Shown here in pieces: positions 3,757 through 63,036 of a stretch of 64,000 bases of DNA. Origin of the DNA: a virus. How positions within the stretch are numbered: position 1 is the first letter of the stretch; every line of letters starts with the position of its first letter. The stretch spans positions 64,001 through 128,000 of the IMG/VR virus record IMGVR_UViG_3300044568_004391, one strand, 5' to 3'. Both the position numbers and the translations under genes were made by a program. The notes under the pieces are model-generated. The model made no database searches. It saw only the letters and a program-made list of their open reading frames with translations, and was not told where the DNA came from.

Positions 3757-3825
3757 TTCCAATAAATACCCAACTCTTGATTAATTGAATTTATATTGTT
3801 AGGTTTAAGGACAGAACTTTTAATT

Positions 3826-4227
3826 ATGAGAAGATCGTCAGGAATTTTACATAAATATAAGGATAAAGTTCTCCTTTGTAAAAGGAGTGAAGAATCAGAA
3901 ACACTTGGTAAGTTTTGGTCAATACCTGGTGGTGGTTGGAAGAAAAACGAATCTTCACAAGCTGCGGCTTTGAGAGAATTCTATGAAGAAACGAATATAA
4001 ATATATCGGACCCACTCATTTATGTTGGAACATCGGTTCACAAAAATGAGGATGGATCGGGAAGTAAGTTGGATGTTTTTATGGTTGAAGCCTCAGAAAT
4101 GATTTCACCTGAGTTAGAAAATGCAAAAGATGGATTTGAGCATTCTGAATGTGGTTATTTTGAAATTGATAAATTACCCTCTCCTATGCCAAGAGATCTT
4201 ATTAACATTATAAAAAAAATTAATTAA
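3826..4227 (+). CDS. NUDIX hydrolase
   Basis: PGG..E...AALREFYEETNI Nudix box; ATG at 3826. Confidence 0.85.
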   Translation: MRRSSGILHKYKDKVLLCKRSEESETLGKFWSIPGGGWKKNESSQAAALREFYEETNINISDPLIYVGTSVHKNEDGSGSKLDVFMVEASEMISPELENAKDGFEHSECGYFEIDKLPSPMPRDLINIIKKIN

Positions 4228-5769: not shown

Positions 5770-6813
5770 ATGAAAGTAAAATTGGAATACATTTGGTTGG
5801 ATGGTTATGAACCAGAACCAAACCTAAGAAGTAAAGTCAAAGTTGTTGATGCAAAGAGACAGCAAGGAGTTGATCGAGATGTTTTTGGTATTGAACTTAA
5901 AGATTGTCCTGAATGGTCTTTTGATGGATCTTCCACCAATCAAGCGGAAGGTCACTTCTCTGATTGTGTCCTTAAACCTGTTTCCCTTTATCCTAATCCA
6001 CTAAACAAAGGAGTTATACCATCCTACTTTGTGATGTGTGAAGTTTATCTTCCTGATGGAACCCCTCATCCTTCAAATACGAGATCATCTATTGAAACAG
6101 AGGATGAAGATCTTTGGTTCGGTTTTGAACAAGAATATACTCTTGTAAAGGACGGAAGACCTTTGGGTTTCCCAAACAATGGTTATCCCGCTCCACAAGG
6201 AAAATACTACTGTGGTGTAGGTAATGGACAGGTCAACGGAAGAACTTTTGTTGATGAGCATTTGGAGATGTGTGTATACGCAGGGATTGATATTACAGGA
6301 ACCAACGCTGAGGTGATGCTCGGACAATGGGAATATCAGGTCTTCAGTAAGGGGAAGAAAAAAGCAGGTGATGATCTTTGGATCACACGATATATTTTGG
6401 AACAGATGTCCGAGAACTACGGATTTAAAATTGAATTCCACCCCAAACCTGTTCAAGGTGATTGGAATGGATCGGGACTTCACTGTAACTTCTCAAACAA
6501 GAGGATGAGAGAAAATGGTAGTAAGGAATATTTTGAGGGAATCTTCAAACAATTTGAGGATAGACACTGGTTACATATTGAAAACTATGGATCAGACAAC
6601 AACCTTCGTTTGACAGGAAAACACGAAACACAACATATCTCCAAATTCAGTTGGGGTGTATCAAATCGTGGAGCGTCAATCAGAGTTCCATTGAATACTA
6701 CACATAATAATTGGGCGAGTGGGTATTTGGAAGATCGTAGACCTGCTTCTCACGCTGATCCATATAAGATTGTGAAAGTAATTTCAGATTCTTTGGATTT
6801 AGTTGAAGTTTGA
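5770..6813 (+). CDS. glnII: glutamine synthetase type II
   Basis: LEYIWLDG, WSFDGSST, FGFEQEY, NAEVMLGQWEYQ, DWNGSGLH, RLTGKHET and YLEDRRP motifs. Confidence 0.95.
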   Translation: MKVKLEYIWLDGYEPEPNLRSKVKVVDAKRQQGVDRDVFGIELKDCPEWSFDGSSTNQAEGHFSDCVLKPVSLYPNPLNKGVIPSYFVMCEVYLPDGTPHPSNTRSSIETEDEDLWFGFEQEYTLVKDGRPLGFPNNGYPAPQGKYYCGVGNGQVNGRTFVDEHLEMCVYAGIDITGTNAEVMLGQWEYQVFSKGKKKAGDDLWITRYILEQMSENYGFKIEFHPKPVQGDWNGSGLHCNFSNKRMRENGSKEYFEGIFKQFEDRHWLHIENYGSDNNLRLTGKHETQHISKFSWGVSNRGASIRVPLNTTHNNWASGYLEDRRPASHADPYKIVKVISDSLDLVEV

Positions 6814-6815
6814 GC

Positions 6816-6846
6816 TTGACAAACCGAAAAAAAGTTCATACATTTG
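6816..6846 (+). promoter_or_regulatory. host sigma70-type promoter (TTGACA..TACATTTG)
   Basis: Bacteroidota -7 element TAnnTTTG with upstream TTG. Confidence 0.65.
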
Positions 6847-6926
6847 TAATCCAAACCGAACGAGGTTAGGGTTTTTTCACGAAAACGATATATTTATATA
6901 TCACAGAAAAAAATAGGGGATTTCAC

Positions 6927-6957
6927 TTGACAAAACGAAAATTAAGTTGTAGTTTTG
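6927..6957 (+). promoter_or_regulatory. host sigma70-type promoter (TTGACA..TAGTTTTG) directly upstream of the ncRNA
   Basis: TAnnTTTG at 6950-6957 and TTGACA at 6927. Confidence 0.7.
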
Positions 6958-6961
6958 TCCT

Positions 6962-7750
6962 CTGAAATTAGAGTTCTTTGATTAAAACCTTTTATTGATG
7001 GTTTAAACGGTTGGCGGCTTAGCGTCGTTAGATAACCCCGGCGACGGGAATAAAGGGTCGGAATTCAGATCTAGCAATCTGATTATATGACCGCAGAACA
7101 TTAGGTGTTCTGACAACTAAGCAAATTACCTACGATAGAAACCCTAAGGGCAACTGCTAAGGGGGTTCTATTATCCTGAGTCCGTGGAATATCAGGGTTG
7201 AGGTGGTGACACCAATAGGAAAAGGTAAAGATGACGGTTCGAAACAACCTGCCAGTTGTTTGAGGGCTGAGCATCAGTCTGAGGGGCATCCGATGGAAAA
7301 TTAATCCGACGTTGTCCTGAAAGGCCGTGAGTGGGCAGACTCACAGAGAGTAGTGTGGTATTCCGTGTTCAAAAGATATGGAGTCACACCGACAGCGCTA
7401 CTTTCCATTTCCACATTTGCTAATTTAATACTTAAATTAAGCAAAAGTCTGTCGGCGTTGTAAACGAAAGGTGTCTAAAACTTCAGACCGTGAGGTCAAT
7501 GAAGTCTCAGATAAGACCGCAAGTCTTTCTGAGTTGATTGTGAAAGTTCTAGTAGGTCGGCCAACCTTTAGTGAGTGAAAACTCAATAGAAACGAGTATT
7601 AGTCGAGTGGTTTACAACGATACGAGTGGTTACCGATAGTAACCGACACTGATCTGATATCACGGGCAATCGTGATGGACAAGTTGGCAACCTGTCGTGG
7701 GGTACACCAACGAAAGACAGATCACTCAAGCGTGTAGTCTCAGCGCAAAC
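6962..7750 (+). ncRNA. large structured ncRNA, GOLLD-like
   Basis: About 790 nt, raised GC, no credible ORF, many GNRA-capped hairpins and long-range helices (7389-95/7449-55, 7456-65/7610-19, 7650-56/7718-24); bounded by promoter and terminator; family assignment from recalled resemblance only. Confidence 0.7.
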
Positions 7751-7765
7751 TTAAAGAATCCCCTT

Positions 7766-7796
7766 ACCTTAACCGTAGTTGGTTAAGGTTTTTTTT
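7766..7796 (+). terminator. intrinsic terminator of the ncRNA
   Basis: accttaacc-gtagtt-ggttaaggt followed by T-tract. Confidence 0.85.
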
Positions 7797-7857
7797 GCCC
7801 TATTGACTCAAAACAAAAAAAGTTGTATATTTATTTATAGTTAATACATTTTATGAA

Positions 7858-8019
7858 ATGAATAATTTAACTGACGAAGATGAAGACCTCTCCTACATTT
7901 GGGGTGGTGGTAAGAAAATTAAAAAACCCAAGAAAAATCAAAAACCGACTGATGGATTTTGGGAAGATGAGTATTACGAATCGGATCAGAAGAAAGGAAG
8001 AGGTAAAAAAAAGTTTTGA
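7858..8019 (+). CDS. small charged protein (53 aa, not in ORF track)
   Basis: MNNLTDEDEDLSYIWGGGKKIKK..KKGRGKKKF; TATTTAT at 7828. Confidence 0.55.
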   Translation: MNNLTDEDEDLSYIWGGGKKIKKPKKNQKPTDGFWEDEYYESDQKKGRGKKKF

Positions 8020-8062: not shown

Positions 8063-8329
8063 ATGACTCAAAAACAAATCTCCATCCTCCATCCTAAACA
8101 CGGATCAATCTTGAGTGAGTCGTTTGTTGACGATGTTCAATTCAAACTTTTCCTCAAGTCCGTCAACGGATGTTTGTCCTTGAAACGAGATCTGACGTTC
8201 TACGATGGTAACCACTTCCTCATACACATCCCGTATGTTGTATTGAAGTCTTCAATCGTTACAACAAAAGTTGAGACAATCACACCTGGAAAGGTTTTGA
8301 TTGAATCGGCTTTGGAAAAGAGCCACTGA
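8063..8329 (+). CDS. hypothetical protein
   Basis: ORF behind a host-type promoter and followed by a terminator. Confidence 0.65.
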   Translation: MTQKQISILHPKHGSILSESFVDDVQFKLFLKSVNGCLSLKRDLTFYDGNHFLIHIPYVVLKSSIVTTKVETITPGKVLIESALEKSH

Positions 8330-8844: not shown

Positions 8845-9861
8845 ATGATTAATTTCGCAGACATTATTGTTGATCTTCAGGCGGGTGACACAGGTAAAGG
8901 GAAAGTGGCTCATGCACTTGCAAAAACAAACGACTACACACATGTTATTAGGTATAACGGAGGTGGTAATGCGGGTCACACCGTTTACCATGACGGAGAA
9001 AAAGTAGTAACCCATTTCATACCAGTTGGGGTTCTTTATAACATCCCTTCCATTATTGGACCAGGATGTGTCGTTGATCCAATCAAATTGGAGATGGAAC
9101 TCGATGATTTAACAAAGGTAAATCCAAGAGTTAGAGAATTTCTTTTTATTGATCGTGGAGTCCATATTATAACAGAACAACACAAAGAAGAGGATGGTAA
9201 AGATTTCAAAATCGGAACAACTAAAACAGGAAATGGTCCGGCTTATGTGGATAAGTACAATAGAAGTGGAATCAGATATGAAAATTATGTGACAATCAAC
9301 AATCCTTCCAACAACTACCTTTGTGATATTTATGACATTTTATTTTCTCAAGAGGATGTTAAAATTCTTTTCGAAGGTGCTCAGGGTTTTGAGTTGGATA
9401 TTGATTGGGGTGATTATCCGTTTGTCACATCTTCTCATTGTACGGCGGGTAGTGCTTGTTTGAATGGTGTATCACCCAAATACATCAGAGACATTTATGG
9501 TATTTCAAAAGCATATGTTACTTATGTAGGTGCAAAAGAATTTGAGGGTGGTCTTGATATTTTTCAGAAAATCAGAGAAGTTGGAAATGAATATGGGGCA
9601 ACTACAGGAAGACCAAGACAAGTTAATTGGTTGAATTTAGATAATTTAATCAAAGGATCCAACATCAACGGTGTTACGAAATTAATTATTAATAAAATTG
9701 ATGTATTGGAAAAAATAAACTACTATTGTTTGATTTATTTAGGTGAGGAAATTATTTTTGACAAAAAATTAGAATTCAAAAATTTTATTCACCAAACACT
9801 TATTGAAAAGTGTCCTCTAATTCAAGAAGTAATTTTTAGCTATACACCTTACGAGATATGA
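8845..9861 (+). CDS. purA: adenylosuccinate synthetase (short form)
   Basis: GDTGKGK, RYNGGGNAGHT, IGTTKTGNGPAY, FEGAQG, YPFVTSS and EYGATTGRPR motifs. Confidence 0.95.
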   Translation: MINFADIIVDLQAGDTGKGKVAHALAKTNDYTHVIRYNGGGNAGHTVYHDGEKVVTHFIPVGVLYNIPSIIGPGCVVDPIKLEMELDDLTKVNPRVREFLFIDRGVHIITEQHKEEDGKDFKIGTTKTGNGPAYVDKYNRSGIRYENYVTINNPSNNYLCDIYDILFSQEDVKILFEGAQGFELDIDWGDYPFVTSSHCTAGSACLNGVSPKYIRDIYGISKAYVTYVGAKEFEGGLDIFQKIREVGNEYGATTGRPRQVNWLNLDNLIKGSNINGVTKLIINKIDVLEKINYYCLIYLGEEIIFDKKLEFKNFIHQTLIEKCPLIQEVIFSYTPYEI

Positions 9862-10097: not shown

Positions 10098-11501
10098 ATG
10101 AATCGTTTCATCTCTTTTCTTGTTCTGATGTTTATGAGTACTTTTGTGTATTCACAAAAAAACACACCTTTTGGATGTATAACCTTTGGAGAAAATAAAA
10201 ACATTTTACCGATGGGTAGGTTGAAATCCAAATCAACCAATACACCCAAAGAAATCAGATTGGTATTTCACGTTTGTTATACTGACGCGATTCCATTGAG
10301 TGAAATTCCTGTTGAATCAATATATGGTGCGATTGATCAAGCCAATGTAGATTTCGAGGGAACTAACATCAGTTTTGTTTATGCAGGTCATGATTATATC
10401 AATATCCGAGAGTTCGCTTGGCACGACTCATTTGTCTCAGGTCAAGTTTGTTTCCCAACTTATAGAACTCAATCAACAATGATTTCTAACAAATACGCTT
10501 GGGATATTTCAGAGTATTGTAATGTTTATATTATCCCTAAAATGTGTTCCACTATCTTGGGATATGCCTTTATCACATATGGACCTGCAAATAAAGATGA
10601 CGGGGTTTGGGTTAAGACCGAGTCTTTTGGGTATGGACCTTGGCCACACGTAAACCCGAAGTATGTGGAAAACGAAACCTTTAGTCATGAGCTCGGTCAC
10701 TACTGTGGATTGTTTCACGTATTCAATAACACATCGTATTGTGGACAACAAGAGGCAAACATACCTTGTGAATATGAAGGTGATTTTGTATGTGATACTC
10801 CACCCACCAAACTCGCAAGAGGATGTCCTTCCTACCCTGTTGGATCATATTGTCCTGAAGTAAATTACGATGGTGGAGTTCCATATCGTGCGAACAACCA
10901 CATGGACTATTGTCCTGAACAATGTAGAGATGTATTTACTCCAGGTCAGATAGACCGAATGCATAGAATGTTGGACTTCCAAAGATATGAGTTATACACA
11001 GAAGAGCAAGTAACACCCTTCTGTTTGGGTGATTTCGATAAGAACGGAATGATTGGAACTGGTGATCTGTTGATTATATTGTCCCATTATGGTTGTGTGG
11101 AATGTGACTATGAGGAAGGAGATATGAATATGGATGCACTTGTTAATGTTTTGGACTTAAACTTCTTGTTGGCTTTTTGGGGTGATGTTTGTGGTGACGG
11201 GGTAGGACAGATCCAAGCCAAAAGATCAGGACCTCAACCCGAATTAGAAGATCCTTTCGAGATTATCAGTAACTATGATTTTCCTGAACGAGGAACTCCC
11301 ACGAAAGAAAAAGATCGTGAAGAAAAAAAGGAAGAACCTTCTTTTGGTCTTATGAATTTGGTAAAAGAAATTAAAAAAACGGCCCAATTTAAATTGGAAG
11401 AAATTGATGAACTTGATTTGAATACGTTATTTTCTGAATATGGTGTTGATAGTTTGATTGTGAATATCAACGAAGATGAGAAAATTGTGATTGAACGATA
11501 A
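10098..11501 (+). CDS. secreted M43 (pappalysin/ulilysin-like) zinc metalloprotease with dockerin/EF-hand-like pair
   Basis: Signal peptide; HELGHYCGLFHVF, CDTPP and NHMDY Met-turn; DFDKNGMIGTGDL / DMNMDALVNVLDL. Confidence 0.85.
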   Translation: MNRFISFLVLMFMSTFVYSQKNTPFGCITFGENKNILPMGRLKSKSTNTPKEIRLVFHVCYTDAIPLSEIPVESIYGAIDQANVDFEGTNISFVYAGHDYINIREFAWHDSFVSGQVCFPTYRTQSTMISNKYAWDISEYCNVYIIPKMCSTILGYAFITYGPANKDDGVWVKTESFGYGPWPHVNPKYVENETFSHELGHYCGLFHVFNNTSYCGQQEANIPCEYEGDFVCDTPPTKLARGCPSYPVGSYCPEVNYDGGVPYRANNHMDYCPEQCRDVFTPGQIDRMHRMLDFQRYELYTEEQVTPFCLGDFDKNGMIGTGDLLIILSHYGCVECDYEEGDMNMDALVNVLDLNFLLAFWGDVCGDGVGQIQAKRSGPQPELEDPFEIISNYDFPERGTPTKEKDREEKKEEPSFGLMNLVKEIKKTAQFKLEEIDELDLNTLFSEYGVDSLIVNINEDEKIVIER

Positions 11502-13886: not shown

Positions 13887-14204
13887 ATGTCGATCACTCA
13901 AAAATACCTTACAATTAAAACAAGAACTTCTGGTTTCTCTTCACCGGCAGAATCCTATGTTGACAAAAGATTGGATCTAAATGAACTAATATGTCAAAAC
14001 TCATTTTCAACCTTTTATTTCAAATATGTCGGACCAAACACACTGGGTGTTAAGGATGGAGATATACTTGTTTTAGACAAGTCAGAAACACCAAAGGAAG
14101 GTGATTTGGTTGTCCTAACAGATAAGACATATTTTAAAATCCGTGAATACAAAGAACAGGATAATCTTTGGGGTAAAGTAACTTGGATCTTAACCAAAAA
14201 ATGA
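13887..14204 (+). CDS. umuD: UmuD-like protein, catalytic dyad apparently lost
   Basis: [20 protein letters not shown] and DGDILVLD; directly upstream of umuC. Confidence 0.75.
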
Positions 14205-15406
14205 TGAAACGAAAGATCGGTATTATTGACTGCAACAATTTCTATGTTTCTTGTGAGAGGGTATTTAATCCAACTTCAATTGGAAAACCAACGGTAGTTC
14301 TATCCAATAATGATGGATGTGTAATTGCTAGATCACAAGAGGCTAAAGCGTTGGGTATAAAGATGGGTGAACCATTCTTTCAGAAAAGAGATTTTATGGA
14401 TCAACACAGGTTCTGTGTATATTCATCCAACTATAATCTATATGGTGATATGTCAGACAGGGTGATGAGTGTTATCAAAGAATATGCAAATGAAGTTGAG
14501 GTGTATTCTATTGATGAGGCATTCGTTGATTTTTCAAATATACCTGACGATGAACTTTTGGATCGTTTACATTTTATCAAAAACGAAGTGAAGAGAAAGG
14601 TGGGGATTCCAGTATCTATTGGTGTTGGACCGAATAAAACTTTGGCTAAGTTGACATCACATATTGCAAAACAAACACCCGGTTACGACGGGGTTTGTTC
14701 TTATTGGGGTTTGAAGAACTTCAGGAACATGATGTATAATGTTGAGGTTGATGAGGTGTGGGGAATTGGAAGAAAGTGGTCCAAGAAATTAAAGACAATC
14801 GGTGTGGAATCCATCGGTCAATTTATGAATATGTCGGATTATGTTGTTAGAAAGATGATGAACATAAATGGACTCAAAACCAAACACGAGTTGTTTGAGA
14901 TGTATTGTCATCCGATCCAGCTAAAGTCCAAGATGAAAAAGAATATTGCATCCACACGATCTTTTGGTGAGGATGTTGATCAGTTTGATCAGATTGCCGA
15001 AGCAATGTATTCCTACATAAAATCGGGAGTAAAGAAACTTCAAGACAACGAAATCATCGCATCACGGGCAACCATCTTTGTAAGTGGGAACAAACACAAA
15101 GATCAAGGACATTACAGATCCAAATTGGTTTTTTTCCAAGAACCAACACAAGATGTAGATATGATTTGGTCACAAGTATATCCTCTTCTCAAGAAGATAT
15201 ATTCAAATTCCAAAAAATATAAAAAGTGTGGAATCATCTTCAACGAATTAACTCCTGAAAATTCAAAACAGATTTCTTTGTTTACCGAACCCATCCAATT
15301 GGTGTCACCACCATCGAATAAGGAAAAGAGATGGGAGATGAAACAAGAATATGTATCACAAAAATATACGACATCTTGGAATGAACTACCTCTTGTCTAT
15401 GTTTAA
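14201..15406 (+). CDS. umuC: Y-family DNA polymerase UmuC (Pol V)
   Basis: [37 protein letters not shown] and STRSFG motifs. Confidence 0.92.
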
Positions 15407-19508: not shown

Positions 19509-20630
19509 TTATTTTACACAAGTTTGTCCTATACCTGTTAAGAAAATTAAAAAGTCCTGTGAACTAACAAATCCATCGGCATCGAGATCACACTTATAAC
19601 ATTGACCACTTTCTGTGGTGGTTCCGTGACAACTCAAATAGATAAGAAAATCTTGTGAGGTGACTAAACCATCATTATCCAAATCCAATAAACAATTTAA
19701 AGAAAGAGTTTTGAATACATCTTTCCTGTTTTGGTTTACATAACTATGCATTCTGTTGATCTGACCATTGGTAAAACTGCGCCGACAATTATTGGCAAGG
19801 TAATCCATATGATTATCTTGGACATAACCAAACCAGGGATCAGATTCCAAAATGATCACATTACAACCTGGCGTGCAGTCGGGGACAAAGTTAGATCTTT
19901 GAAATGGTGGGGTGTCACAAACAAGATCTCCTGTCGTTCCGCAATCCAATCCATAATTTTCACAAGAGAACGCACCATTAAAGGTATGAAACAAACCAAG
20001 ATAATGACCGACCTCATGGACAAGAGTTGCGTTTCTGTGATATGAAGATGGGTTCAAAGAGAAGGTGGAAGTTCTAATCCAGATCCCGTCAGGTGGTTTG
20101 GGTGCGGGATTGATGATGGTTGCTCCGAAGGGTGGGATAAACGAAAAACCAAGAGAATTATATACTTTGGGTTGAATAAAGATATTGAGAGTTGTGTTGG
20201 GATTTACACTCATGGTATTACCAATTTCAAATAGTTTTGAAGAACCTGGCGGATACATAGCGGGAAGTTTGCTACTATTCATAGGTTCGGTCATATATTC
20301 TTGATACCAAGAGAAATCTTTCAGAGGTTTCCGATTGATTGAAACAAGAACAAATCTAAATTTTGCTTTATTGAATTTAATATTCAAATCATTTAGAGCA
20401 ACCAACAAGGTGGAGTCAGAAACATTCAACAACTGATCGTCATAGAGGACATGGAAGACGATGGGGATTTCTTTGTATGTAATCGGATCGGAGGATTTAT
20501 TGGATAGTCTAGCAGATTTACGAGACAAAGAAGAGAAATCTTTTTTGGAGGTTTGAGTTCCACATTCTTCTTGAGAGAAAGATCCAAATGATATAAAAGA
20601 CAAAAGTATTAATAAGATATAGTTTTTCAT
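19509..20630 (-). CDS. secreted M43 zinc metalloprotease with dockerin/EF-hand-like pair
   Basis: Signal peptide; HEVGHYLGLFHTF, CDTPP and NHMDY; DLDNDGLVTSQDF twice. Confidence 0.85.
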   Translation of the reverse strand: MKNYILLILLSFISFGSFSQEECGTQTSKKDFSSLSRKSARLSNKSSDPITYKEIPIVFHVLYDDQLLNVSDSTLLVALNDLNIKFNKAKFRFVLVSINRKPLKDFSWYQEYMTEPMNSSKLPAMYPPGSSKLFEIGNTMSVNPNTTLNIFIQPKVYNSLGFSFIPPFGATIINPAPKPPDGIWIRTSTFSLNPSSYHRNATLVHEVGHYLGLFHTFNGAFSCENYGLDCGTTGDLVCDTPPFQRSNFVPDCTPGCNVIILESDPWFGYVQDNHMDYLANNCRRSFTNGQINRMHSYVNQNRKDVFKTLSLNCLLDLDNDGLVTSQDFLIYLSCHGTTTESGQCYKCDLDADGFVSSQDFLIFLTGIGQTCVK

Positions 20631-55615: not shown

Positions 55616-57724
55616 ATGAAAAAAATATTTCTTGTATTTTTCTCTTTTATTTCTTTTATTGGTTTTTCGCAGTCAGATCAGTGTGGATTCGATCACATTA
55701 AGATGATGGGTATGTTTGATATTACCGAAAATCACGAAATAACGTATATTGGTAATAGAGATGAAGTTCACACAATTCCTGTTGTTTTTCACGTAATTCA
55801 TTTGGGTGAAGATGAAGGTGTTGGTACAAATATTTCAGATGAACAGATTTTAGATGGATTGAGAATTATCAACGAAGACCTAAGAAAAATTCCAAATTCA
55901 TGGGGTGATGGAATAGGTGTTGATGTTGAAATGGAACTTTGTTTGGCGTCGAGAGACCCTTTGGGAAATCCAACAAATGGAATTACAAGACATGATGGTA
56001 ATATATGGGTGGATTATTCTACAAATGGTATTTCATTCACACCAAACCAAGTAGGTGAACCTGAATTGAATATTAAAAATGCTACAACATGGGATAGAAC
56101 CAAATACCTGAATGTGTGGTTAGTTTCTGAAATTCAAGGAAATGACGGACTGTGGGGTACACAGGGATATGCTTACTATCCAATCCCCAACAATCGTGAC
56201 GGTATTGTTTTATTACACAATGTTATTGGTTCCTTTGGAAATGTCAAACCAACACACAATAGAAGTAGGACTTTTACTCATGAGTTTGGTCATTACTTAG
56301 GTTTGTACCACACATTTGAAAGTTATGAAGATTGTAGTTCTGCGGCTTCAGAAGTGGATTGTGTAACTCAAGGAGATAGAGTTTGTGATACACCACCCAC
56401 CAAAGTGGGTTGGGGTTGTACACCGGCTTGTGTAATCACAAATTCACAATACCAAAACTATATGGATTATAGTGAACAAACTTGTAGAAACACATTTACT
56501 CAAGGACAAAAAGATAGAATGAGGGGTGGTGCAGGAATTATGAATGCTTGGAGAGTTTCTTTATTATCTAGCGATGGTTGTACACCTGTCGAAGGAACCA
56601 ATCTTTCTATTGAAAGTGGTACATATTACCAAAATTGTGGGTTTTCAGGGATCAAACCTGAAGTTAAAATTCAAAACTTGGGGTTAAATCCAATTCATCA
56701 ATTTCAAGTAAGTGCAAGAATTGTTGGTACACCTTACTTTATTGTTAAAAGTTGGACATCTGAAAATCCAATAAACTTATTTGACGTTGTCACAGTTACG
56801 TTCCCTATGGGATCTACAGATTACGGGACAGGAGAAATTATTTATCAAATTTTGGATCAAGATTCCTACATGACTGATAATACCCTTGAAATTATTTACG
56901 AATCATTACCATCGGAAGAATTAACGTTGATTTTGAATCCAGATTTTTTTGCGAACGAAACGACTTGGGAAATGGTAAATATTAATGGTGATATAATTTG
57001 GGAGGGGGGTCCATATAGTACAGGTCCCGATAATCCAATTATCCATATCGATTGTGTCTCGAATGGATGTTATGACTTTACAGTATATGATCAGTTTGGA
57101 GATGGATATGATTTCGGTGGGGATTTTGAGTTGATCAATTCATCAGGTGAAACATTAGCATACGGAGAGGATAATTTCGGTGATGAGGTGACTTTTAACT
57201 TTTGTATAGATGTGCCATTTTTGGAACCCTGTAGTGATATTGGATATAATGGAATTTGTGACGATGATGAGATCGGATTAATTTGGGGTTGTTTAGATCC
57301 GTTGGCGTGTAATTATGATTTTTATGCGAACTTATCAAACGCATCTTGTATTTTTCCGAATGGTATTTACGATTGTTTTGGGAATTGTTTGGTTGATTCA
57401 GATTACGATGGTGTTTGTGACCAATTAGAAATCTTGGGGTGTATAGATCCGATTTCCTGTAATTACGATGAAAATGCAACCGAAGAATCAGAGTGTCAAT
57501 ATCCAATCTTCGGATATTCTTGTGATGGTATACCGTTGACTTCATTGAATACTGTAACAGGTATTAGAGAACTAATTAATTCAAATATCGTTGAAAAAAT
57601 TATTCTATACGATATTCAGGGTAGAGAAATAAACCCTGATAAAATAACATCATCAGGTGTTTACCTAATTAATTTACACTTTAGGGATGGTACAATCAGA
57701 ACTCACAAAGTTCATTTGAACTAA
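55616..57724 (+). CDS. secreted multidomain M43 metalloprotease with GCxDPxAxNY repeats and T9SS type-A-like CTD
   Basis: Signal peptide; HEFGHYLGLYHTF and NYMDY; C-terminal LYDIQGREI..SGVYLI..THKV; TATATTTG at 55587. Confidence 0.85.
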   Translation: MKKIFLVFFSFISFIGFSQSDQCGFDHIKMMGMFDITENHEITYIGNRDEVHTIPVVFHVIHLGEDEGVGTNISDEQILDGLRIINEDLRKIPNSWGDGIGVDVEMELCLASRDPLGNPTNGITRHDGNIWVDYSTNGISFTPNQVGEPELNIKNATTWDRTKYLNVWLVSEIQGNDGLWGTQGYAYYPIPNNRDGIVLLHNVIGSFGNVKPTHNRSRTFTHEFGHYLGLYHTFESYEDCSSAASEVDCVTQGDRVCDTPPTKVGWGCTPACVITNSQYQNYMDYSEQTCRNTFTQGQKDRMRGGAGIMNAWRVSLLSSDGCTPVEGTNLSIESGTYYQNCGFSGIKPEVKIQNLGLNPIHQFQVSARIVGTPYFIVKSWTSENPINLFDVVTVTFPMGSTDYGTGEIIYQILDQDSYMTDNTLEIIYESLPSEELTLILNPDFFANETTWEMVNINGDIIWEGGPYSTGPDNPIIHIDCVSNGCYDFTVYDQFGDGYDFGGDFELINSSGETLAYGEDNFGDEVTFNFCIDVPFLEPCSDIGYNGICDDDEIGLIWGCLDPLACNYDFYANLSNASCIFPNGIYDCFGNCLVDSDYDGVCDQLEILGCIDPISCNYDENATEESECQYPIFGYSCDGIPLTSLNTVTGIRELINSNIVEKIILYDIQGREINPDKITSSGVYLINLHFRDGTIRTHKVHLN

Positions 57725-58735: not shown

Positions 58736-59043
58736 AAAACTTTCCCTTGTTGATTTTGTCAATCTTTTTGTTGTCCTCCTGTGCTGTTACATTGGAAGAA
58801 ATGCAATCAGAACCAAATGATTGGACAATTCAACCTGCATTTGTTTTAGATTGGGATGGTCAAACACCGGTCAACAGGTGGTGTTCAGTTATCGAACTTA
58901 ATAAATTGGACACAACAACGAATGGTGTTCCTTACATCATCAGAGAAGTTCTGGTTCAAGAAGGTGACAGCACTAAAAGAATTTTGGTGATCGAATCTCA
59001 GTTGGATGAAACCTATAAAATTACCAAAGAAATGTTTAGGTGA
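58732..59043 (+). CDS. lipoprotein
   Basis: Lipobox LSSC. Confidence 0.65.
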   Translation: MKNFPLLILSIFLLSSCAVTLEEMQSEPNDWTIQPAFVLDWDGQTPVNRWCSVIELNKLDTTTNGVPYIIREVLVQEGDSTKRILVIESQLDETYKITKEMFR

Positions 59044-61178
59044 GAATCATCTTATCTATATTATTTTTAATCTTAGGTGTAAATTTATATTCCCAATGTG
59101 ACGTTATTATCCAACCTGGGACACTCCAAAAGATAGATGTAAACCCTGGTGTTAAGTTCAGTTTCACAATAAAAAATAATGGAACTACACCTTTTCAAAA
59201 TGGGACATTCCATCTTTCTTTTGGGTGGTTGGATTCTCCAATGAATCCTCAATCTGTTTGGAATATGAATTTAAGTACTCCTATTCAACCGAATGGTACA
59301 CTACAAGTAACGTCACCTGTTTTCGATATTCCGGTTCCACAAAACGCAACAGAGTGGCCTTTTTGGGATGAAACCACAGGACCCAACGGTTGGCCAAACC
59401 CTAACTATGGTCCTTTGATGGTTTATTTAAATGGATGTTTTATAAATGCTCAAACCATAAATTCATTCCTCCCTTTGAGTGATGATTGTCCAAATATAAA
59501 TCAGGATCAATTTTGTGATTGTAATTTTGAGCTCTATGATTTCAGGACAGAACCCGAAATGCAATTAGATGTTGTTGTCCATAGTGATTATAATTGTTTT
59601 CCTGTAGGTTTTCCTCCTGGCCCCAATAGTTTTACAATTAACAATCCTGGTATATATAACATGACGATCGGTATAAACAGTTTGTTAGAAGACAACTGTG
59701 GACCATCTCCTGATCAAGGACATACTTATCTTCATTTTACATCATCTTATTTACCTGATTATGTTTTGGGAGATACGATCACTCTCGATTTAGACCAAGC
59801 ATCAAATTATTCATTAATAACATGTCTTCAAGAATCTTATAATCAAGGTAATTTTGATAATTGTTATGAGGTAGTTTTGTGGCAAATAAATAACAGTCTG
59901 AGTTTGATTTCACCAAACACATTCGAAGTAACAGTTGGTGACAATATAATTCGTGTGGATGAAAATTGTCAGACGGTTGTTGATGTTACTGACTTATCTA
60001 TTGATTCCTTTTCTTACGACATAATAGGGTGTGATGTAGGTTCGCCATATGCTGCTATGAACATCACACTATCCAACGAAGGTAATACAACTATAACCAA
60101 TTTCTGTTTGAATTTGGACATTCTTCCTGATGGTATACCTGGTGAACAATATTGTTTTTCTAATTTAAATATTTTACCTGGTCAAAGTTATGTCGTTGAA
60201 GTCAACGGAGGTTCATTATCAAATGGTGTTACTTCTATCTCAATTGAAACACCGAATGACGTAATTGTAACGAATAATACCTTCGTAACTATTATTGATT
60301 TACCTTGTTATGGTTGTACGATAAGTTCAGCAATAAACTACGATCCTTTCGCAACGGTTGATGACGGATCTTGTATTATGCCCGTTCCAGGTTGTTTGGA
60401 TCCTTTGGCGAATAATTATAATCCAAATGCAACGGTTGACGATGGTTCTTGTACTTATGATGTTCTTGGTTGTACCGATCCTTTAGCGAACAACTTCAAT
60501 CCTGATGCAAATACAGATGACGGATCTTGCTTATATGATGTCTTTGGATGTACTGATCCATCGGCAAATAATTATAACCCTAACGCAACTGTTGACGATG
60601 GTTCTTGTACTTACGACCCAATTTTGATTTTCGGATGTACTGACCCATTAGCAAATAACTATGATCCAAATGCCAATACTGATGATGGATCATGTAATTA
60701 TGATATTTTTGGTTGTACGGATCCCGAAGCAAATAACTACAACCCAAATGCGAACATAGAAGATGGATCTTGTACATACGATCCTGAAATTATATTTGGT
60801 TGTACCGATCCAACGGCCCTTAACTTTGATCCATTTGCAAACTCTGACGATGGGACTTGTATTTATGAAATTGATATTTGTGAGGAAGCGGATTTACATA
60901 CATTCGTACCAAATGTTATAACACCAAACAATGACGGATTAAACGATGTTTGGAGAGTGGTTACTCAGTCAGACTGTTGGAGAACTTGGAAAACTCAAAT
61001 CTATAACAGATGGGGTAGTTTGATCTGGGAATCTGAAGACCCCGATGCCGTGTGGAACGCAAGTAATAGTGGAAGTGTCTACTTTGTTTCCGATGGAATT
61101 TATGTGTATACTATTACAGGGGTCGCTTGGAATAACAAACCAATTCAAAAATCAGGTTACGTTACAATAATGAGGTAA
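59040..61178 (+). CDS. exported repeat protein with T9SS type-B (gliding-motility-associated) CTD
   Basis: Signal peptide; 7 GCTDPxAxNY repeats; FVPNVITPNNDGLNDVW..IYNRWG..DGIYVY..GYVTIMR. Confidence 0.85.
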   Translation: MRIILSILFLILGVNLYSQCDVIIQPGTLQKIDVNPGVKFSFTIKNNGTTPFQNGTFHLSFGWLDSPMNPQSVWNMNLSTPIQPNGTLQVTSPVFDIPVPQNATEWPFWDETTGPNGWPNPNYGPLMVYLNGCFINAQTINSFLPLSDDCPNINQDQFCDCNFELYDFRTEPEMQLDVVVHSDYNCFPVGFPPGPNSFTINNPGIYNMTIGINSLLEDNCGPSPDQGHTYLHFTSSYLPDYVLGDTITLDLDQASNYSLITCLQESYNQGNFDNCYEVVLWQINNSLSLISPNTFEVTVGDNIIRVDENCQTVVDVTDLSIDSFSYDIIGCDVGSPYAAMNITLSNEGNTTITNFCLNLDILPDGIPGEQYCFSNLNILPGQSYVVEVNGGSLSNGVTSISIETPNDVIVTNNTFVTIIDLPCYGCTISSAINYDPFATVDDGSCIMPVPGCLDPLANNYNPNATVDDGSCTYDVLGCTDPLANNFNPDANTDDGSCLYDVFGCTDPSANNYNPNATVDDGSCTYDPILIFGCTDPLANNYDPNANTDDGSCNYDIFGCTDPEANNYNPNANIEDGSCTYDPEIIFGCTDPTALNFDPFANSDDGTCIYEIDICEEADLHTFVPNVITPNNDGLNDVWRVVTQSDCWRTWKTQIYNRWGSLIWESEDPDAVWNASNSGSVYFVSDGIYVYTITGVAWNNKPIQKSGYVTIMR
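60309..60870 (+). repeat. 7 tandem 26-29 aa GCTDPxANNYxPxAxxDDGSC coding repeats
   Basis: Directly visible in the translation. Confidence 0.9.
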
Positions 61179-62999: not shown

Positions 63000-63036
63000 T
63001 TTAAAACTAAGAGGTCAGTTGTAACCGACCATTTTG

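Follow-up and report, generated by a model that had tools for sequence, protein, structure and literature searches.

GOLLD RNA locus in a large uncultured phage

We analyzed a 64,000-nt stretch of DNA, referred to here as the window, that covers positions 64,001 to 128,000 of the IMG/VR virus record IMGVR_UViG_3300044568_004391; coordinates are those of the window unless stated otherwise. The source record comprises 151,984 bp with a CheckV completeness of 52%. Between a gene for a glutamine-synthetase-like protein and a gene for a small protein of 88 amino acids, the window carries a GC-enriched block that is preceded by predicted promoters and followed by an intrinsic terminator (Table 1). 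We assign this block to GOLLD, a family described in 2009 whose members are among the largest noncoding RNAs of bacteria and phages and, as recently shown, form RNA-only cages larger than the ribosome. Our reading, to which we give a probability of roughly 90%, is that the block is a GOLLD RNA gene with its core at 7012-7746, transcribed independently of its neighbors, in a large phage that has not been cultured and whose host probably belongs to the Bacteroidota.

A scan of the whole window with Rfam 15 returned one large match, which was to GOLLD (RF02032). The match scored 263.9 bits, where the gathering score is 150, with an E value of 5e-74, and it covered positions 1 to 416 of the 416-position model without truncation. 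This copy is the sole GOLLD of the record. When the region 6700-7900 was scanned again with permissive filters, no Rfam family besides GOLLD was found at an E value of 1 or less, and this search included ROOL, OLE, group I and II introns, and RNase P. To the extent that their models can detect them, these RNA classes are thus ruled out, and ARAGORN detected no transfer-messenger RNA (tmRNA). The initial annotation, which had been made from the sequence alone, called the block either a GOLLD-class RNA or a new giant RNA and named these families for comparison; GOLLD was the only one that matched, so that the locus is a fresh member of a known family and not a novel kind of RNA.

Other properties of the block agree with this assignment. 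The GC content is 0.43 to 0.50 across approximately 7000-7800, compared with 0.30 to 0.39 in the flanks, and no open reading frame (ORF) inside the RNA region is longer than 62 amino acids. The minimum free energy (MFE) predicted for 7004-7797 is -258 kcal/mol, compared with -217 ± 7 kcal/mol for dinucleotide shuffles (z = -5.9). GOLLD RNAs have a total length of about 700 to 850 nt, a range that holds both the core of about 736 nt (7011-7746) and the predicted transcript of about 835 nt. The family is expected to be encoded by phages or prophages, as this copy is given the phage-type genes in the record, and its relatives all come from viral contigs. The proposal of a structured noncoding block thus holds beyond chance on the strength of the Rfam E value, the folding energy, and the covariation described below, and all sixteen sequence strings listed in the initial annotation were found where it had placed them.

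TABLE 1 Features at and around the GOLLD locus (window coordinates, except for the entries prefixed C1)
Feature	Position	Strand	Basis or remark
Glutamine-synthetase-like gene, 347 aa	5770-6813	+	Gln-synt_N (E 2e-11), Gln-synt_C (E 7e-17), Pfam
Promoter P1 (predicted): TTGACA, 17-nt spacer, TACATTTG	6816-6846	+	Bacteroidota-style -7 box
Weak hairpin and T6, between P1 and P2	6850-6877	+	Read from sequence
Inverted repeat GATATAT-TT-ATATATC, 16 nt	6887-6902		Invariant in 4 relatives
TATATTTAT word, inside the inverted repeat	6889-6897		Includes TATTTAT
TATTTAT	6891		String of the initial annotation, present
A7 tract after the inverted repeat	6907-6913
Promoter P2 (predicted): TTGACA, 17-nt spacer, TAGTTTTG	6927-6957	+
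Leader: small hairpin CTCT/AGAG, then conserved word GTTCTTTGA (6973-6981)	6960-6981	+
GOLLD 5' domain, 18 helices	7012-7345	+	Alignment A2, RNAalifold
cccg-GCGA-cggg	7037		String of the initial annotation, present
atagaaaccct/gggggttctat	7135/7161		Strings of the initial annotation, present
GOLLD 3' domain, universally conserved part	7346-7746	+	RF02032 match
Pseudoknot helix ccgacag/ctgtcgg	7389-7395 with 7449-7455	+	Covariation
Long-range helix cgttgtaaac/gtttacaacg	7456-7465 with 7610-7619	+	Bracketed helix of Rfam model
gacc-GTGA-ggtc	7486		String of the initial annotation, present
L21a hairpin, loop CGGCCA, self-complementary GGCC at 7559-7562	7554-7567	+
L21b hairpin GAGU-GAAA-ACUC, loop 7577-7580	7573-7584	+
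ggttac/gtaacc	7628/7639		Strings of the initial annotation, present
Long-range helix tgatctg/cagatca	7650-7656 with 7718-7724	+	Part of Rfam model
atcacg/cgtgat	7659/7671		Strings of the initial annotation, present
Intrinsic terminator: 10-bp stem, 4-nt loop, T8 run	7766-7797	+	Consensus scan
Next promoter (predicted): TTGACT-N17-TATATTTA	7803-7833	+	For downstream small genes
88-aa protein gene ('o88', P0001; alignment A3)	8063-8329	+	Candidate GOLLD associate
GTTCTTTGA in tRNA-operon leaders	C1:140936, 148390, 150269, 146607	-

Covariation in both domains of the RNA

We gathered relatives of the RNA from IMG/VR by two motif scans, one using a 3'-domain motif and one a 5'-domain motif, which yielded 22 and 88 loci. 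About 80 of the scanned loci have collinear homologues of both halves of 7004-7746 by nhmmer. The nearest relatives are the near-identical loci L018 and L022; L016 and L049 come next. In the first scan, six of the 22 loci (L007, L011, L015, L019, L020, and L021) had no GOLLD by nhmmer or Rfam and are taken to be chance pattern matches. Among cultured phages, a blastn search of 6816-7796 against 50,697 phage records gave zero matches. For the 3' domain and the long-range helices we used 52 unique relatives aligned over their full length; for the 5' domain, 7004-7345 was aligned with 45 unique IMG/VR relatives (A2).

The three long-range helices proposed in the initial annotation lie where it had drawn them and covary across the 52 relatives. 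The helix 7389-7395/7449-7455 is a pseudoknot, of a type that Rfam cannot annotate, and is paired in all 52 relatives with covariation at four of its seven positions. It closes a variable AU-rich linker (approximately 7405-7445), which ranges from 41 to 72 nt among the relatives and is shortest in the window; this linker corresponds to J13/15, which is disordered in the structures solved by cryo-EM (PMC12286853, PMC12990946). The second helix, which encloses the kissing-loop hairpins discussed below, is paired in 51 to 52 of the 52 relatives through several pair types. The third is paired in 49 to 52 of them, with compensatory changes at four positions.

Because the RF02032 model spans the conserved 3' half of GOLLD alone, the upstream part of the RNA was analyzed separately. 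Directly upstream of the 3' domain lies a structured, less conserved 5' domain, as is characteristic of GOLLD. Its RNAalifold structure has 18 helices with a total of 77 predicted pairs, and compensatory changes are seen in 36 of these. In this domain 99.5% of the alignment cells are paired, compared with 89.2% in shuffles and 30 to 42% with slid partners; pairs changed on both sides number 36, compared with 4 to 12 with slid partners; and the covariation score is 0.376, compared with 0.04 to 0.08, figures that are somewhat favored by deriving the structure from the same alignment on which it was scored, yet the margin is large. Two of the hairpins that had been picked out by eye, cccg-GCGA-cggg and atagaaaccct/gggggttctat, belong to this domain and are among its covarying helices. 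The comparison with homologs that the initial annotation had proposed thus shows helices of both domains covarying in relatives. Since the model match is full length and the relatives covary, an artefactual Rfam match is very unlikely.

Predicted transcription unit

The initial annotation had given the RNA a triple promoter input and a strong downstream terminator. At the level of motifs the former is borne out, in that two conserved TTGACA-N17-TAnnTTTG sites, P1 and, 111 bp downstream of it, P2, flank a TATATTTAT word. P1 and the terminator, the latter as a stem-loop at 7766-7789 with a T run after it, came from a consensus scan, and P2 from the pattern TTGAC-N17-TAnnTTT. P1, P2, and all of the sequence between them are conserved in four relatives, and P1 is kept in these even though their flanking synonymous sites are near saturation. 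The pattern TTGAC-N17-TAnnTTT(G/A) has only five sites in the 152 kb of the record, three of which flank GOLLD (6816, 6927, and 7803). In nearly every unique relative, those with a tRNA-Met gene upstream included, a P2-type promoter stands ahead of GOLLD, which indicates that across the subfamily the RNA is served by a promoter of its own.

The TATATTTAT word between the two promoters occurs 29 times in the genome, compared with 13.8 for permuted words. Eighteen of the 29 copies lie 5 to 42 nt upstream of the ATG of an ORF, mostly at 14 to 20 nt, where controls give 2.3. This enrichment ahead of ORF starts marks it as a genuine gene-proximal, promoter-like phage motif, and it likely represents a phage-specific promoter class. 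The copy at 6889 may act as a third promoter, as an UP-like element, or as an operator, and the predicted arrangement of P1 and P2 with TATATTTAT between them resembles the tandem promoters of stable-RNA operons. Other copies in the window include those at 7826, 8401, 28541, 29042, 29509, 32052, and 33035; gene-proximal copies often stand directly after a terminator, without a -35 or -33 element.

The terminator stem covaries among relatives (AT/GC/CG and TA/CG), so that the 3' end of the unit is conserved. Together the motifs suggest a start site at about 6962-6965 and a primary transcript of about 835 nt that runs from P2 (approximately 6963) to the terminator (7797). The suggestion in the initial annotation that the RNA would be made both early and late is a guess. 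The weak hairpin with six T residues between P1 and P2 may be the terminator of the glutamine-synthetase-like gene. As a conserved terminator it is unsupported: its sequence is kept, but it shows zero compensatory changes and the stem is weakened in L049.

The leader of the predicted transcript contains GUUCUUUGA and the word GTTCTTTGA. Of 42 unique relatives, 41 have a shorter core, TTCTTT, within 120 nt upstream of the GOLLD core, and by eye most of these read GTTCTTTGA(A). The same GTTCTTTGA(A) follows the -7 box not only in the leaders of GOLLD but also in those of the tRNA operons in this genome, and may serve stable RNAs as a common leader or processing signal. A weaker idea concerns the leader word GUUCUUUGAA, common to GOLLD and the tRNA operons, which might pair with the invariant L14 sequence UUCAAA and so tie the cage to tRNA precursors. 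The leader UUUGAA is complementary to L14 UUCAAA, and both are invariant among relatives; in published GOLLD structures L14 is assigned to an A-minor contact (PMC12990946).

Comparison with known RNA cages

Two solved structures provide a reference for the predicted assembly. The env-38 GOLLD (833 nt; PDB 9MEE) assembles as a D7-symmetric 14-mer cage (Kretsch et al. 2025, PMC12286853), in which the 5' domains cap half-shells, the 3' domains form a ring, and the linker points inward (PMC12286853). Its half-shells are joined by the self-kissing loops L21a and L21b plus an A-minor contact (PMC12286853). The Streptococcus agalactiae GOLLD (700 nt; PDB 9L0R) lacks P21b and forms a 12-mer (summarized in PMC12990946), while its 3' domain alone forms a 10-mer (9LMF; PMC12990946). 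Altering or losing P21b and parts of the 5' domain shifts the number of subunits without abolishing assembly (PMC12990946).

By homology with these structures, we infer that the RNA in the window would fold without protein and self-assemble into a closed homo-oligomeric cage. Its 3' domains would form the ring, and the half-shells would be joined through the self-complementary GGCC of the L21a kissing loop (7559-7562), while the 5' domains would form the caps and the AU-rich linker would face inward. In position, the L21a hairpin matches the env-38 loop that kisses itself through GC/CG (bridge B8; PMC12286853; PMC12990946). Its central GC is invariant in the 52 relatives, and 43 of them have a self-complementary tetranucleotide (GGCC in 39, UGCA in 3, and AGCU in 1), which is the pattern that a symmetric kiss between molecules predicts.

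The window shares with env-38 the full match to the 3'-domain model, the two domains with a variable internal linker, an L21a loop with a self-complementary core and central GC, and its location in a phage. The palindrome in L21a is the 4-nt GGCC in the window and a GC/CG dinucleotide in env-38, the core measures about 736 nt compared with 833 nt, and the host, which is probably a member of the Bacteroidota, also differs. The S. agalactiae RNA belongs to the same family but to another host phylum and another setting, a bacterial chromosome or prophage near tRNAs; it has no P21b, whereas the window retains that hairpin with a GNRA loop. ROOL, an 8-mer RNA-only cage (PDB 9MDS), is likewise a large, ornate phage RNA that is often near tRNA genes, but its sequence and secondary structure are unrelated to those of the RNA in the window.

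Several observations weigh against a straightforward transfer of the env-38 model or against the reading as a whole. The L21b loop in the window is a GAAA tetraloop, compared with the self-kissing CUCGG of env-38; it has no self-complementary dinucleotide, which makes an env-38-type self-kiss (bridge B9) impossible. This loop occurs in 4 of the 52 unique sequences, namely the window and its near-identical relatives; the L016-type sequence has UGUAAU, and most other relatives have a CGCAA pentaloop. The 5' domain falls about 85 nt short of its env-38 counterpart, and the two look alike, by eye, over about the first 100 nt only. Given the L21b loop and the shorter 5' domain, the stoichiometry could differ from 14, and the contacts between halves, and perhaps the number of subunits, may differ from those of env-38. 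A self-kissing L21b does not define membership in the family, since the S. agalactiae GOLLD assembles without P21b. The nearest tRNA gene is about 55 kb away, which weakens a tRNA-linked reading for this phage, and the start sites, RNA ends, and expression timing are predictions from motifs.

The most likely guess at function would be a role tied to translation or to tRNA handling during infection, as GOLLD is usually linked to tRNA genes, with a tRNA-Met directly upstream in several relatives. A tRNA-Met gene stands in this position in env-38 and in close relatives of the window (L002, L005, L010, and L012), whereas the window has no adjacent tRNA; such adjacency is frequent for GOLLD but does not define it.

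Constraint on the locus and alternative explanations

The absence of the usual tRNA neighborhood, the shortest linker of the subfamily, and the atypical L21b loop are what one might expect of a GOLLD remnant that is decaying and no longer functional. Against this, the model match is full length and untruncated, base pairing is preserved, and the promoters and terminator are conserved. The GOLLD core is 89 to 91% identical to those of L016 and L049, and the upstream intergenic and promoter region is 85 to 93% identical, whereas the flanking genes reach only 48 to 60% identity at the synonymous third positions of conserved residues. Identity of the core and control region so far above that of neighboring synonymous sites indicates strong constraint at the nucleotide level and no decay, and we give a remnant hardly any credence. 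Scarcely more probable is that the block is not a stand-alone RNA but a leader that acts in cis on the genes downstream, in the way of a giant riboswitch or attenuator. It does lie on the same strand as the small genes downstream, and the intergenic layout is kept in close relatives, but the unit closes at 7797 with a covarying terminator, and from 7803 there is a consensus promoter separate from it. The downstream genes also vary among relatives, and GOLLD is known as a free, self-assembling RNA (PMC12286853).

An extension of the reading as a GOLLD gene, rather than a competitor to it, is that GOLLD and the 88-amino-acid protein encoded downstream form an RNA-protein module in which the protein serves as a cofactor, chaperone, or cargo of the cage. 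Of 54 related loci with at least 1 kb of downstream sequence, 44 have the gene after GOLLD, on the same strand, and 10 lack it. Where tblastn finds it (54 loci), it lies 100 to 760 nt downstream in 52 of the 54, while other neighbors change. Looked at from the side of the protein, 253 IMG/VR contigs encode a relative. Among the best 80, the gene is preceded by a same-strand GOLLD no more than 2.5 kb away in 50, and these include GOLLDs with a different 5' domain (for example, L139, 318.8 bits). The protein family is small and restricted to viral sequences, with 65 clusters among 1.84 billion representative proteins. However, in 30 of the 80 protein loci an Rfam search at an E value of 0.01 or less gave no GOLLD within 2.5 kb, and GOLLD is missing from 10 of 23 protein clusters at 80% identity. 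The gene also has its own predicted promoter. In L139 (1328-2439) and L144 (1591-2439), whose flanks are 91 to 95% identical, the cassette of tRNA and GOLLD in L139 is replaced by an HNH endonuclease gene in L144, directly upstream of the gene for the 88-amino-acid protein; this swap looks like an insertion hotspot and not like codependence. An obligate pairing is accordingly rejected, given the protein loci and clusters without GOLLD and the cassette replacement. The alternative is that GOLLD cassettes land in a mobile-insertion hotspot upstream of this gene, and overall we regard a functional module as a doubtful proposition, although with clearly better prospects than a remnant or a leader.

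Searches for the nature of the protein were uninformative. It belongs to no Pfam or PHROG family, has no profile match to PDB sequences, no informative Atlas cluster, and no recognized RNA-binding fold or motif. It had no Foldseek match at an E value of 0.001 or less, the best VIA-align hit (Z 5.3) being a generic alpha+beta protein, and tblastn against cultured phages gave zero matches. On a contig without GOLLD (L131), a gene for SmpB, the tmRNA-binding protein (1801-2229; E 7e-46), lies two genes upstream of the 88-amino-acid homologue, and represents another translation-related gene at the same variable position.

The locus leaves the understanding of GOLLD unchanged; it is of value for annotation and for the concrete leads that it gives to experiment. 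It adds a well-defined GOLLD from a probable Bacteroidota phage and marks out a subfamily with some 80 or more metagenomic relatives, for which the model of the 5' domain is supported by covariation. GOLLD appears here as a self-contained gene with its own strong predicted promoters, independent of any tRNA gene. The natural variation at the loops that join the half-cages is useful for asking what sets the number of subunits, and the small protein that usually travels with GOLLD is a testable partner. If it binds, loads, or sits inside the cage, it would be the first known protein partner of GOLLD and would offer a direct handle on function.

Genomic context and host

The initial annotation had described the RNA as standing alone after glutamine synthetase, which is right: the upstream gene encodes both Gln-synt domains, and the nearest tRNA gene is at 63036. 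The 13 tRNA genes of the record all lie at 127 to 152 kb of the record, on the opposite strand. The glutamine-synthetase-like gene is syntenic upstream of GOLLD in L018, L022, L016, and L049. Its product is a partial match to the catalytic domain, and a similar protein is present elsewhere in three other GOLLD contigs.

Two lines of evidence point to the Bacteroidota as the probable host phylum. Sites of the -33/-7 type (TTG-N19-21-TAnnTTTG) occur 37 times genome-wide, compared with 12 expected, and a 712-amino-acid protein (59040-61178) has at its end a CHU_C domain, a signal for type IX secretion (E 6e-17). The promoter type and the CHU_C domain together indicate such a host. Three M43 metallopeptidase-like proteins are encoded at 55616-57724, 10098-11501, and 19509-20630 (- strand), and these and the CHU_C protein also fit secreted proteins encoded by the phage.

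Further genes in the window include a NUDIX gene (3796-4227) and a short adenylosuccinate-synthetase-like gene (338 amino acids; 8845-9861). The latter may be PurZ or PurA: its PHROG name is of the PurZ type (2-aminoadenine pathway), but its tblastn matches include bacterial PurA at similar identity. A gene for a Y-family (UmuC-like) translesion DNA polymerase lies at 14183-15406 and is 35 to 37% identical to diverse phage homologues.

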